A stretch of DNA of 7,171 nt from a virus (IMGVR_UViG_2609459832_000011); one strand, 5' to 3'; positions 1 to 7,171 are shown, numbered from the stretch's first letter. The notes: generated by a model not told the origin, from the sequence alone. Made by a program: numbers and translations.

Positions 1-1587
1 ACCGTGCGTTATCTGCCGGAGTCCTTTGAGATCCCCTGGAATCCGAACACCCGTACCGAGGTGAGCACCCTCTGCATCAGCCAGTTTCGCTACAGCGCAC
101 AAATCCGCCCTTCTTCCGTGGTGACCAAAGACTACACCTTTAAACGACCCGGCTGGGCAGGGCGTTTTGATCAGGAAGGCCAGTACCAGGATTACCAGCG
201 CACACAGTATGAAGTGTATGACTACCCCGGACGTTTCAAGGGTGCCCACGGGCAGAACTTTGCCCGCTGGCAGATGGATGGCTGGCGCAACAACGCAGAA
301 GTGGCGCGCGGAACAAGCCGTTCGCCGGAGATATGGCCGGGACGGCGAATTGTGCTGACGGGGCATCCGCAGGCGAACCTGAACCGGGAATGGCAGGTGG
401 TGGCGAGCGATCTTCACGGCGAACAGCCGCAGGCGGTACCGGGACGCAGGGGTTCAGGCACCACGCTGGATAACCACTTTGCGGTAATCCCGGCAGACCG
501 GACATGGCGGCCACAGCCGTTGCTGAAACCGCTGGTGGACGGCCCGCAGAGCGCCGTCGTGACGGGACCGGCAGGCGAGGAAATCTTCTGTGATGAACAT
601 GGCCGCGTGCGGGTGAAATTTAACTGGGACCGCTATAACCCGTCAAACCAGGAAAGTTCATGCTGGATCCGTGTGGCACAGGCGTGGGCAGGCACCGGCT
701 TTGGTAACCTGGCGATACCGCGTGTGGGTCAGGAGGTCATTGTGGACTTCCTCAACGGCGATCCGGACCAGCCGATCATTATGGGGCGTACCTACCACCA
801 GGAAAACCGCCCCCCCGGCAGCCTGCCGGGGACGAAGACGCAGATGACGATCCGCTCGAAAACCTATAAGGGCAGCGGGTTTAATGAACTGAAGTTTGAC
901 GATGCGACAGGGAGAGAACAGGTCTACATCCACGCGCAGAAGAACATGAACACCGAGGTGCTGAATAACCGCACCACTGATGTGATAAACAACCATGCCG
1001 AAAAAATAGGTAACAACCAGGCGATCACCGTTACCAATAACCAGATCCAGAACATTGGCGTTAATCAGATACAGACGGTTGGTGTCAACCAGGTGGAAAC
1101 GGTGGGCAGTAACCAGATTATCAAAGTGGGATCAAACCAGGTTGAAAAGGTGGGGATCATTCGTGCGCTGACGGTGGGTGTGGCTTACCAGACGACGGTA
1201 GGCGGCATTATGAATACCTCGGTGGCGTTGTTGCAGTCCTCACAGGTAGGGCTGCATAAATCACTGATGGTGGGAATGGGCTACAGCGTCAATGTGGGGA
1301 ATAACGTCACCTTCTCGGTGGGCAAGACAATGAAGGAAAACACCGGACAAACAGCAGTTTATTCTGCCGGTGAGCATCTTGAACTCTGCTGTGGTAAGGC
1401 AAGGCTGGTGCTGACGAAGGACGGAAGCATATTTCTCAATGGTACGCACATTCATCTGGAAGGGGAGTCGGATGTGAACGGTGATTCGCCAGTGATTAAC
1501 TGGAACTGTGGTGCCACACAACCTGTACCGGATGCGCCTGTGCCGAAAGATTTACCCCCCGGAATGCCGGATATGCGGCAATTTTGA
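1..1587 (+). CDS. vgrG: Type VI secretion spike protein VgrG, C-terminal part (5' end lies outside the window)
   Basis: The frame is open from base 1 to TGA at 1585..1587. The translation has VgrG hallmarks: a gp27/gp5-like region (FKRPGWAGRFDQEG, RWQMDGWRNNAEV, GRTYHQENRPP), Val-Gly octapeptide beta-helix repeats and a DUF2345-like C-terminal region. The GTG at 4 used by the ORF track is internal, not the real start. Confidence 0.9.
   Translation, partial: TVRYLPESFEIPWNPNTRTEVSTLCISQFRYSAQIRPSSVVTKDYTFKRPGWAGRFDQEGQYQDYQRTQYEVYDYPGRFKGAHGQNFARWQMDGWRNNAEVARGTSRSPEIWPGRRIVLTGHPQANLNREWQVVASDLHGEQPQAVPGRRGSGTTLDNHFAVIPADRTWRPQPLLKPLVDGPQSAVVTGPAGEEIFCDEHGRVRVKFNWDRYNPSNQESSCWIRVAQAWAGTGFGNLAIPRVGQEVIVDFLNGDPDQPIIMGRTYHQENRPPGSLPGTKTQMTIRSKTYKGSGFNELKFDDATGREQVYIHAQKNMNTEVLNNRTTDVINNHAEKIGNNQAITVTNNQIQNIGVNQIQTVGVNQVETVGSNQIIKVGSNQVEKVGIIRALTVGVAYQTTVGGIMNTSVALLQSSQVGLHKSLMVGMGYSVNVGNNVTFSVGKTMKENTGQTAVYSAGEHLELCCGKARLVLTKDGSIFLNGTHIHLEGESDVNGDSPVINWNCGATQPVPDAPVPKDLPPGMPDMRQF
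1006..1155 (+). repeat. Tandem octapeptide Val-Gly repeats inside vgrG (IGNNQAIT/VTNNQIQN/IGVNQIQT/VGVNQVET/VGSNQIIK/VGSNQVEK)
   Basis: Six consecutive 24-nt imperfect direct repeats, each encoding xxxNQxxx with V/I-G periodicity. This matches the classical vgr repeats of VgrG proteins. Confidence 0.65.
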
Positions 1588-4900: not shown

Positions 4901-5898
4901 GCGAACAGGCGAAGGCGCGGCACCGGAGCCTGGCGGAGGTGTTGCAGGAGGACACGGGGGTGACGCTTCCGGCGGAGCTGGCGGTGATGCTGGGGAGGCT
5001 GGAGCGGGAACTGCGTGCGGGAGCGGTGAGTGCGGAGAGTGAGGCATGGCTTGCGCAGTGCGGGCTGACGGTGGAGCAGATGGAAAGCCAGATGGAGGCG
5101 GAATACATCCCGGAGCGGAGGCTGCATCTTTACCACTGTGACCACCGGGGACTGCCGCAGGCGCTCATCAGCCCGGAAGGGGAAACGGCGTGGTGCGGGG
5201 AGTATGACGAGTGGGGGAACCAGCTTAATGAGGAGAACCCGCATCACCTGTACCAGCCGTACCGGCTGCCGGGGCAGCAGTATGATGAGGAGTCGGGACT
5301 GTATTACAACCGTCACCGGTACTACGATCCGTTGCAGGGGCGGTATATCACCCAGGATCCGATAGGGTTGAAGGGGGGAATAAATCTATACACGTATCCA
5401 CTGGCACCAATACGTTACACTGATCCACTGGGGTTAGAACGAGTTATAAGTGTATATGGGCCTCCCGCTCCAGACCGGGCAGGTGCTGAAACTCCTCTTG
5501 TTCTTACTGATATGACTGGAGGAGTGACTATTTATTATGATCCTGAAACAGGTGATTCAATGACTTTTGATAGTAGCAATAGAATTGATCGTCGTTCTCA
5601 ACGTGGTGCTGGTGATCCATATACAGGTGAAGTCGTTGGTTGTGAGACAAATGAATCAGGAATATCGGCAGCATATGGCACAACGAAGATCTATACTACA
5701 GATACTAGAGCAAGATGGCTACATGGTGGGGGATCATCGTTGCGCGATCCTTATGCTCCTCGACAAGGCTGGAAACCAACTATGGGATGTACCCGTGCAC
5801 AGAATGAAGATGTAGATGAGTTGTGTAAGAAAGTGACAAGTTGGATGTATTCGCATCCTGGAGAGAGAATTAGATATGAACGTTTTAAGACACGTTAA
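1663..5898 (+). CDS. rhs: Rhs family polymorphic toxin: N-terminal PAAR-like domain, RHS/YD-repeat core and variable C-terminal toxin tip
   Basis: 1411-codon ORF from ATG 1663 to TAA 5896..5898. The N-terminus [12 protein letters not shown]...[14 protein letters not shown] contains a literal PAAR motif. Many YDxxGR(L/V) repeats follow. The hyperconserved core end is [38 protein letters not shown], then a divergent AT-rich tip. Confidence 0.95.
2626..4710 (+). repeat. RHS/YD-repeat region (protein-level repeats forming the Rhs shell; boundaries approximate)
   Basis: Recurrent YxYDxxGRL-type motifs, e.g. [97 protein letters not shown]. Confidence 0.7.
5422..5436 (+). other. DPxGL motif (DPLGL) marking the end of the Rhs core and the likely autoproteolytic release site of the C-terminal toxin
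   Basis: The sequence [10 protein letters not shown] closes the conserved core. The DNA composition switches from GC-rich to AT-rich within about 50 nt of this motif. Confidence 0.8.
5437..5895 (+). other. Rhs C-terminal toxin tip (153 aa) with a YkuD-like L,D-transpeptidase catalytic signature
   Basis: His at 5722..5724 (WLHGGG), then 18 residues, then T-M-G-C-T-R with Cys at 5788..5790 and Arg at 5794..5796, then NEDVDEL at 5803..5823. Compare the YkuD consensus HG-x(14-18)-[ST]xGC[IV]R-x-N[KE]D[VI]xEL. Confidence 0.65.
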
Positions 5899-6109
5899 TG
5901 CGATTAACATGGGAGTGTGCATTCTAATTTTGGTTATTGGATGTGCAAATGCTAAAGTTCTTAAACGATGTATATTACCCGCTCCTGATGGTGGCGTAGA
6001 AAAACTATCAAAACCCAACTTACATGGAGTAATTAAAAAAGTTGATTTGAACACAAATGAAGCGGAAATTAAAATAAAAGAGGGGGGGGGCAGTGAGTTT
6101 TATTTTTAA
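5876..6109 (+). CDS. Putative Rhs immunity lipoprotein (77 aa as written; possibly truncated by a frameshift at the G9 tract)
   Basis: ATG 5876 overlaps the rhs 3' end by 23 nt. GGAGAG lies upstream at 5860..5865. The N-terminus [23 protein letters not shown]|ANAK has a basic n-region, a hydrophobic core and a lipobox (V-I-G-C, Cys codon 5942..5944). The ORF is AT-rich like the toxin tip and sits where Rhs immunity genes normally lie. Confidence 0.55.
6082..6090 (+). repeat. G9 homopolymeric tract inside the 3' end of the immunity-candidate ORF
   Basis: Nine consecutive G in otherwise strongly AT-rich DNA. A -1 G change shifts translation into a frame that stays open to TGA 6267..6269. Confidence 0.9.
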
Positions 6110-6309
6110 TGAGGAAACATTGTATTTTACTGTTTTTGGTGGGGATTTTATTATGGATGATTTAAAAAAAGTAAAAAATACGGAAGCATGGGTATGGTAT
6201 AAAAATTGCGATAGTAAAAATAAAAATGTGGCAGTTGAACTTCTTCAAATCTACGAATTGCATCAATGAAAAATATAGTTAAATAGAGGAGGTTATTAAT
6301 AGCAGGAAA

Positions 6310-6447: not shown

Positions 6448-7171
6448 ATGGAACTTAAAAAATTGATGGAACATATTTCTGTTATCCCCGATTACAGACA
6501 AGCCTGGAAAGTGGAACATAAATTATCGGATATTCTACTGTTGACTATTTGTGCCGTTATTTCTGGTGCAGAAGGCTGGGAAGATATAGAGGATTTTGGG
6601 GAAACACATCCCGATGTTTTGAAGTGATATGGTGATTTTGAAAATGGTATTCCTGTTCACGATACTATTGCCAGAGTTGTATCCTGTATCAGTCCTGCAA
6701 AATTTCATGAGTGCTTTATTAACTGGATGCGTGACTGCCATTCTTCAGATGATAAAGACGTCATCGCAATTGATGGAAAAACGCTCCGGCACTCTTATGA
6801 CAAGAGTCGCCGCAGGGGAGCGATTCATGTCATTAGTGCGTTCTCAACAATGCACAGTCTGGTCATCGGACAGATCAGGACGGATGAGAAATCTAATGAG
6901 ATTACAGCTATCCCAGAACTTCTTAACATGCTGGATATTAAAGGAAAAATCATCACAACTGATGCGATGGGTTGCCAGAAAGATATTGCAGAGAAGATAC
7001 AAAAACAGGGCGGTGATTATTTATTCGCGGTAAAAGGAAACCAGGGGCGGCTTAATAAAGCCTTTGAGGAAAAATTTCCGCTGAAAGAATTAAATAATCC
7101 AGAGCATGACAGTTACGCAATCAGTGAAAAGAGTCACGGCAGAGAAGAAATCCGTCTTCATATTGTTTGCG
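6448..7171 (+). pseudogene. H-repeat-associated (H-rpt) ISAs1-family transposase gene interrupted by an in-frame TGA at codon 60 (6625..6627); 3' end outside the window
   Basis: The translation [116 protein letters not shown]... matches the H-rpt proteins found in E. coli Rhs elements, recalled from memory. The same frame stays open from 6628 to the window end. The track ORF 6629..7033 is in a different frame and is not the real gene. Confidence 0.8.

Follow-up and report, generated by a model that had tools for sequence, protein, structure and literature searches.

A predicted YkuD-fold peptidoglycan enzyme in the C-terminal tip of a type VI secretion-associated Rhs protein of Escherichia coli

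In a computational study, Zhang, de Souza, Anantharaman, Iyer and Aravind (2012, Biol Direct 7:18; PMC3482391) described the 'Tox-LD-peptidase' domain (1ZAT-like, with conserved H, S and C) in RHS-repeat polymorphic toxins of beta- and gamma-proteobacteria that are linked to type VI secretion systems (T6SSs) and have an adjacent immunity gene. The domain was predicted to attack the peptide links of peptidoglycan, compromising the cell wall (PMC3482391). A related described system is the effector Tlde1 (Tlde1a, STM0277; Sibinelli-Sousa et al. 2020 Cell Rep 31:107813; Lorente Cobo et al. 2022 JBC, PDB 7UMA), which is toxic in the periplasm through L,D-carboxypeptidase and exchange activity (bioRxiv 10.1101/2020.02.18.954545). 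The same preprint places some members at the C-terminus of Rhs proteins in Shigella and Escherichia, naming Shigella sonnei WP_052983304.1 and giving 387/3,510 genomes for one subfamily. According to a 2026 survey (PMC12994826), Rhs proteins are usually fused to cytoplasm-acting effectors. Here we analyse a stretch of 7,171 nucleotides (nt) from entry IMGVR_UViG_2609459832_000011 (the window), an Escherichia coli chromosomal segment containing the vgrG–rhs locus of the T6SS-1 cluster, and focus on the 153-residue tip that ends its Rhs protein. We consider it likely that this tip is the encapsulated C-terminal domain of a T6SS-1 Rhs effector, and that it works in the periplasm of attacked cells as a cysteine-dependent peptidoglycan enzyme of the YkuD fold. 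The observations behind this proposal are the fold, the conserved catalytic residues, the Rhs and T6SS context and the export signals of neighbouring proteins.

The YkuD-fold assignment is based on a profile match, a predicted structure and residue conservation taken together. The isolated tip matches the Pfam YkuD profile (PF03734) with E = 3e-5 and 25.1 bits, against a gathering cutoff of 23.4, over profile positions 53–139 of 146. YkuD was also matched by 15 of 17 tip homologues (44–56% identity), with no other model matched, and by 10 of 40 further relatives. An AlphaFold2 (AF2) model of the tip, built from 17 sequences, reached a mean predicted local distance difference test score (pLDDT) of 83.5 and a predicted template modelling score of 0.79, and was weaker only in the first ~16 linker residues and in one loop. 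The modelled domain adopts the predicted β-sandwich of YkuD enzymes, and its top Foldseek match was the L,D-carboxypeptidase Csd6 (E = 8.5e-4). All neighbours found in this fold search act on peptidoglycan stems, and the classical L,D-transpeptidases (Ldts) and L,D-carboxypeptidases outscored DpaA. A preliminary description of the window had proposed a YkuD-type fold for the tip, and the above-cutoff PF03734 match, the AF2 model and the fold search agree in bearing this out.

Translation of 5437–5895 returns the 153-residue tip and, with the boundary before it, each of the DPLGL, LHGGG, TMGCTR and NEDVDEL motifs previously listed, and the numbering of His1354 and Cys1376 was likewise correct. 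An 18-residue spacer had been given between LHGGG and TMGCTR; the actual distance is 15 residues, and His1354 and Cys1376 lie 22 positions apart. The B. subtilis YkuD motif that had been given for comparison is real, being residues 136–150 of PDB 1y7m (SKGCIRMHNKDVIEL), and this segment and the 15-residue motif region of the tip have G, C, R, N, D, V, E and L in common. His1354 and the glycine after it match the His-Gly pair of YkuD enzymes.

The tip family is small: an exhaustive HMMER scan covering 1.84 billion cluster representatives found 336 clusters at E <= 1e-3, of which 176 reached E <= 1e-10. Conservation was counted in about 146 relatives that cover the active site, down to roughly 25% identity. 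The cysteine at tip position 118 (Cys1376) is present in 146/146, H96 (His1354) in 144–145 of ~146, and G97–G99 are essentially invariant; R120 (Arg1378) occurs in 143/145, N123 in 145/145 and D125 in 142/145. Such near-invariance of H96, G97–G99, C118, R120, N123 and D125 suggests that the tip is an active enzyme and not a decayed scaffold, and family-wide conservation also argues for the catalytic His and Cys-Arg proposed earlier. Members are found almost exclusively at the C-terminus of long proteins, mostly of the Rhs/YD type: among 40 long members sampled, 28 carry RHS repeats, 8 a teneurin-type YD shell and 1 filamentous-haemagglutinin repeats, and a few also carry peptidoglycan-related LysM, SLT lytic-transglycosylase or phage-lysozyme domains. 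A second pair of cysteines, Cys69 and Cys130 of the tip, is present as a pair in 45 relatives and missing as a pair in 100, with one alone in a single relative, a raw count that ignores phylogeny. In the model, C69 is placed on a strand and C130 on the C-terminal helix. This pattern suggests a subfamily-specific structural disulfide, which would point to an oxidising compartment.

Two family members have unusual architectures. In one (P0028; locus L003, 6001–6591, and also L004 and L005), a protein of 196 amino acids (aa), a signal-peptide-like N-terminus is joined to an Rhs core-end motif (RYVESDPIGL...DPRGLD) and the YkuD tip without an Rhs shell, downstream of a Transglut_core2 gene and in non-T6SS surroundings; it may be an orphan tip turned to Sec export. 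In the other (P0079, 672 aa), the RHS core end and YkuD tip directly follow a VgrG (Phage_GPD) N-terminus, probably through a deletion that fused vgrG to the 3′ end of rhs.

To place the tip's site of action, we surveyed the gene immediately 3′ of the tip at eight loci, one from E. coli and seven unrelated ones from metagenomes. Exported immunity proteins are a hallmark of periplasm-acting effectors, and a hydrophobic signal peptide was present at the start of 8/8 downstream products. At six of the seven distant loci, the product belongs to one exported family of ~200 aa (24–43% mutual identity, E down to 5e-64) whose genes abut or overlap the toxin stop codon. Its members have several conserved cysteines and a weakly DUF2845/BamE-like C-terminus, with no significant Pfam match. 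We regard this family, which is unrelated to the E. coli lipoprotein, as a candidate immunity family for the tip toxin. The E. coli product itself, a 130-aa lipoprotein with a lipobox, matches DUF4367 only weakly, at 21.7 bits where the cutoff is 22.1. Periplasmic action of the tip is favoured because the downstream products are exported, which is the strongest evidence, because the cysteine pair covaries and because relatives carry LysM, SLT and lysozyme domains. The exported downstream proteins thus lend support to the earlier reading of a peptidoglycan-targeting, periplasm-acting Rhs toxin.

Cleavage, release, the exact bond attacked and immunity are modelled here by analogy with Rhs cages and Tlde1. 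The Rhs protein would be carried on the VgrG spike, and its cage would self-cleave after DPLGL, freeing the 153-aa (17-kDa) tip inside. Firing would deliver the cage to the prey periplasm, where the tip would be released; with the cage placed in that compartment, the tip would need no further membrane crossing. The Cys1376 thiolate, with His1354 as the base and Arg1378 assisting, could then attack the bond between meso-diaminopimelate at position 3 and D-Ala at position 4 (mDAP3–D-Ala4) of tetrapeptide stems. Water may then resolve the acyl-enzyme (L,D-carboxypeptidase activity), or an amine may do so, giving aberrant transpeptidation or D-amino-acid exchange. Either outcome would deplete or corrupt the substrates of normal cross-linking and weaken the wall, as Tlde1 does, and sister cells would be protected by the lipoprotein encoded just downstream. 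Because the structural neighbours include all three activities, carboxypeptidase, transpeptidase or exchange, and DpaA-like amidase acting on the lipoprotein Lpp are indistinguishable from the fold.

Several points weigh against a working periplasmic YkuD toxin with a lipoprotein immunity partner. The case for the enzyme rests on one marginal Pfam score and a predicted structure: the YkuD score inside the whole Rhs protein is 20.9, under the cutoff of 23.4, and the margin of the isolated tip is narrow. Searches of PDB chains with the tip and its family profile (phmmer, hmmsearch) gave no Ldt or Tlde1 match, the similarity being too low; the untrimmed tip alignment matched Rhs core ends and nothing else, and NCBIfam gave no match for the tip or for the downstream open reading frames (ORFs). 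Alignment of the tip profile by hhalign to single sequences of DpaA, Tlde1a and an Ldtfm fragment was not significant. The tip has the His-Gly ... Cys-x-Arg arrangement of YkuD enzymes, with a His–Cys spacing of 22 that is one over the usual 18–21, and at the position of the second His of canonical (S/T)HGC the tip has Met and its family varies. Relatives of the E. coli downstream protein are confined to E. coli and Shigella, and its only homologues are frameshift variants and fragments from E. coli; the AF2 model of the 130-aa lipoprotein is unreliable (pLDDT 31.8), and its putative immunity role is assigned from position alone. The literature searched yielded no experimental work on Rhs-borne YkuD toxins, this one included; the Rhs2-SciX preprint deals with an Ntox47 nuclease. 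Finally, the downstream gene is frameshifted in the window while rhs is intact.

This frameshift raises an alternative in which the module of the window's strain is a decaying remnant, not a working effector–immunity pair, and the broken gene marks relaxed selection at a poly-G tract. Most strains have the downstream gene as a single 130-aa ORF, with G8 at the tract; G9 in the window splits it into ORFs of 77 aa (5876–6109) and 58 aa (6093–6269). Among 1,015 complete genomes carrying the gene, exact-match counts were 719 for G8, 184 for G7, 52 for G9 and 7 for G10, so that ~24% of those genomes are out of frame at the tract. The out-of-frame alleles are real and not one-off errors, because records of the 72-aa product, and likewise of the 77-aa product, come from at least 1,000 contigs; long-read homopolymer error may inflate the G7 count. 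As a control for assembly error, 19 kb of neighbouring housekeeping genes was examined and contained no G/C homopolymer of 7 or more. A G8 run is unlikely by chance in a gene of 33% GC. Two further homopolymers are present in the window, G7 at 1734–1740 near the 5′ end of rhs and C7 at 810–816 in vgrG; tracts of 7 or more were not found at these sites in three other E. coli loci scanned.

We compared tract length with gene integrity at ten loci (the window and nine genomes). Both G8 loci keep vgrG and rhs intact, and rhs is broken at 3/3 G7 loci and at the one G10 locus. The four G9 loci are mixed: the window and strain 51008369SK1 are intact, H9Ecoli has a stop in vgrG, and 2013C-3181, one of the three G9 genomes besides the window, has rhs broken by an IS3 insertion. 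These breaks and the split ORF favour decay, but rhs in the window is a complete 1411-aa gene, strain 51008369SK1 keeps both vgrG and rhs despite G9, and the window tip is 100% identical to that of G8 strains. An immunity gene in the off state would also be tolerable, because a toxin that acts in the periplasm poses no danger from inside to the cell that makes it, and the sample comprises only ten loci. On balance we think it unlikely that the window holds a remnant. As to the tract itself, decay at a mutation-prone site fits better than programmed phase variation, with ten loci too few to decide. A more speculative picture, which we also hold to be improbable, extends the proposal of a periplasmic peptidoglycan enzyme: the tip would form a separate Rhs-specialised YkuD lineage, nearer to housekeeping Ldts than to Tlde1, whose wall chemistry may differ (for example, aberrant 3-3 cross-linking or protein attachment), and the E. 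coli lipoprotein immunity gene would be switched on and off by the hypermutable poly-G tract, which a periplasm-acting, disulfide-dependent toxin would make tolerable.

A further alternative is that the tip is an Rhs-fused member of the Tlde1 (DUF2778, Tlde1c/'Tae7') family and shares the exact chemistry of Tlde1. The Rhs fusions reported in the 2020 preprint for Shigella and Escherichia, the abundance of the same tip in S. sonnei, and the shared overall fold and His/Cys chemistry speak for this idea. However, DUF2778 was matched by 0/57 family members (17 + 40), at E <= 10 or at E <= 0.001, whereas 25 match YkuD. Against Tlde1-family sequences sampled from the JBC 2022 alignment, hhalign gave a probability of ~1% (E = 0.057), and the tip motifs were not found in the part of that alignment that we examined. 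In addition, the His lies 10 residues before the Cys in Tlde1a (IHDSTKGYSHGC; H121/C131), compared with 22 in the tip. The kinship with Tlde1 implied by the preliminary description therefore fails, and membership of this family is very unlikely; judged by sequence, the tip is not a Tlde1/DUF2778 protein, and 'works like Tlde1' is distinct from 'is a Tlde1'.

We give an equally slim chance to action on a peptidoglycan-linked lipoprotein, in which the tip would cut the Lpp–mDAP link as a DpaA-like amidase, or attach proteins aberrantly, and so destabilise the outer membrane. DpaA is among the structural neighbours, but it scores below the classical Ldts and L,D-carboxypeptidases, and its His–Cys spacing is short, unlike that of the tip. 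Loss of the Lpp–peptidoglycan link is not lethal in E. coli, and such an activity would therefore make a weak toxin. Least plausible, and in our view highly improbable, is a thiol peptidase with a non-peptidoglycan target in the cytoplasm, where Rhs tips usually act (PMC12994826): a catalytic dyad does not by itself set the substrate, but the candidate immunity neighbours are exported (8/8), the tip has a covarying cysteine pair, all structural neighbours act on peptidoglycan stems and relatives carry LysM, SLT and lysozyme domains.

The genomic context of the tip is given in Table 1. A 1.2-kb query around the tip is 99.9–100% identical to complete E. coli genomes, with at least 80% of the query found in 911/5,426; the tip module is present in about 1,000/5,426 complete genomes, or about one in five E. 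coli, and is widespread in S. sonnei. The gene order in matching genomes is tssB/tssC/tssE ... vgrG – rhs – small ORF – ISAs1/ISEc1 element – yafV – ivy – fadE. The start of vgrG would lie ~555 nt upstream of the window, and matching genomes annotate the T6SS tip protein VgrG near tssB/tssC/tssE; 75 nt separate the end of vgrG from rhs. Within the Rhs protein, Pfam matches comprise RHS_repeat (E = 1.6e-74, 12 stretches), DUF6531 (E = 6e-19, aa 47–123) and PF03527 (E = 1.5e-13). The N-terminus contains a literal KPAARQGD motif along with DUF6531, and the Pfam PAAR model has no match there. The RHS core end spans aa 1155–1190, and both DPIGL and DPLGL are present, giving an RHS/YD shell with a DPxGL cleavage motif. 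The DPxGL motif also stands before the tips of homologues, and it lines up with the core ends of Rhs proteins of known structure.

From 63% in the Rhs core, GC content drops to 44% in the tip and then to 33% in the downstream gene, as is usual for a toxin/immunity cassette that has been exchanged. The same tip/immunity cassette is found at a second chromosomal Rhs locus in E. coli 2013C-4974 (L020, 5975–6721; yncH ... ydcC-pptA, the rhsE region), and this second occurrence indicates that the cassette moves between Rhs loci. The orphan tip in 2013C-4974 bears the name 'L,D-transpeptidase family protein' (WP_167579191.1) from the Prokaryotic Genome Annotation Pipeline. In the window, the ISAs1/ISEc1 pseudogene stands directly after the cassette, as in classical Rhs elements, and other strains have additional IS1, IS3 or IS66 insertions within or near rhs.

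Table 1. Positions of the features discussed, in window coordinates unless a locus or residue range is given
Feature	Position	Strand	Remarks
Toxin tip, 153 aa, YkuD-fold	5437..5895	+	First ~20 residues a disordered linker; folded domain ~tip aa 21-150
LHGGG	Rhs aa 1353-1357, nt 5719-5733	+	From sequence
HGGG, His1354 (tip H96) and three glycines	5722..5733	+	Predicted catalytic, from family conservation
TMGCTR, Cys1376 (tip C118) and Arg1378 (tip R120)	Rhs aa 1373-1378, nt 5779..5796	+	Predicted catalytic Cys; resembles SKGCIR of B. subtilis YkuD
NEDVDEL, start of C-terminal helix	Rhs aa 1381-1387, nt 5803..5823	+	Model helix tip 123-139; N-x-D-V-x-E-L also in YkuD 1y7m
Cys1327 (tip C69)	5641..5643	+	Likely disulfide partner of Cys1388, from covariation
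Cys1388 (tip C130)	5824..5826	+	Likely disulfide partner of Cys1327, from covariation
DPLGL core/tip boundary	5422..5436, Rhs aa 1254-1258	+	Expected C-terminal autoproteolysis site of Rhs cages; motif from sequence, cleavage predicted
rhs, full length, 1411 aa	1663..5898	+	Identical to WP_032219660.1; stop codon 5896-5898
vgrG, 3' part (last 527 codons)	4..1587	+	Pfam Phage_GPD, Phage_base_V, Gp5_trimer_C
Putative immunity gene, lipoprotein	5876..6269	+	Overlaps rhs stop by 23 nt; signal peptide; lipobox VIGC at residue 20; GC 33%
Poly-G tract, G9 in window	6082..6090	+	In-frame length G8; from alignment
ISAs1/ISEc1 (H-repeat) transposase pseudogene	6448..7171, runs off window	+	Internal stop in matching-genome annotation; broken ORFs in window
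~200-aa exported family members	L003 6597-7190; L006 4635-5243; L013 1299-1904; L015 2204-2821; L017 1741-2337; L018 1462-2067		Follow the tip

The preliminary description had also called a peptidoglycan-targeting Rhs tip unusual. This holds among characterised Rhs toxins, but the idea is not new: it is anticipated by Zhang et al. (2012), by the 2020 Tlde1 preprint and by NCBI, which names fragments of this tip 'L,D-transpeptidase family protein'. The exact tip is abundant in S. sonnei, and the S. sonnei protein WP_052983304.1 likely carries the same tip as the window. The tip is thus an uncharacterised member of a computationally known class; the find is correct and its novelty was overstated, and it does not open a new kind of system. 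What the analysis adds is a clean, testable annotation in which the predicted catalytic residues are joined by candidates for a disulfide and for a lipoprotein immunity gene. It also separates the tip from Tlde1, correcting the easy assumption of a 'Tlde1 on Rhs', and contributes the poly-G polymorphism and the evidence from exported immunity candidates. The Rhs toxins characterised so far mostly act in the cytoplasm, and a cell-wall enzyme in an Rhs cage would be a useful case for studying the release of cage contents in the periplasm.

Compared with the systems described above, the tip resembles Tlde1 in its predicted L,D-transpeptidase-type fold, in its His/Cys site and in its probable role as an antibacterial T6SS effector; Tlde1 exerts its toxicity in the periplasm, where its immunity protein neutralises it. 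Tlde1 is, however, a stand-alone, Hcp-type cargo with DUF2778, a short His–Cys spacing, a capping subdomain and the immunity protein Tldi1 (DUF2195), whereas the tip is Rhs-fused, matches YkuD, has the 22-residue spacing, is without the capping insert and is paired with an unrelated immunity candidate; DUF2195 had no match in the E. coli downstream protein, where DUF4367 appeared only below threshold. The housekeeping YkuD enzymes Ldtfm (6FJ1), B. subtilis YkuD (1Y7M/2MTZ), Csd6 (4XZZ) and Pgp2 (6XJ7) differ from the tip in being secreted non-toxins with extra domains (LysM, NTF2-like, peptidoglycan-binding), in sharing 9–16% identity with it and in the second His of (S/T)HGC, which is Met in the tip. 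The closest likeness is to Tox-LD-peptidase, in that an RHS-repeat protein ends in an L,D-peptidase domain and has a putative immunity gene linked to it. The neighbours differ: Tox-LD-peptidase is paired with Imm16 (DUF2750) and Imm57, whereas the tip is followed by an E. coli-specific lipoprotein, which has no Pfam match to DUF2750, and elsewhere by the ~200-aa exported family. The tip is best filed under Tox-LD-peptidase, as a separate YkuD lineage specialised for polymorphic toxins.

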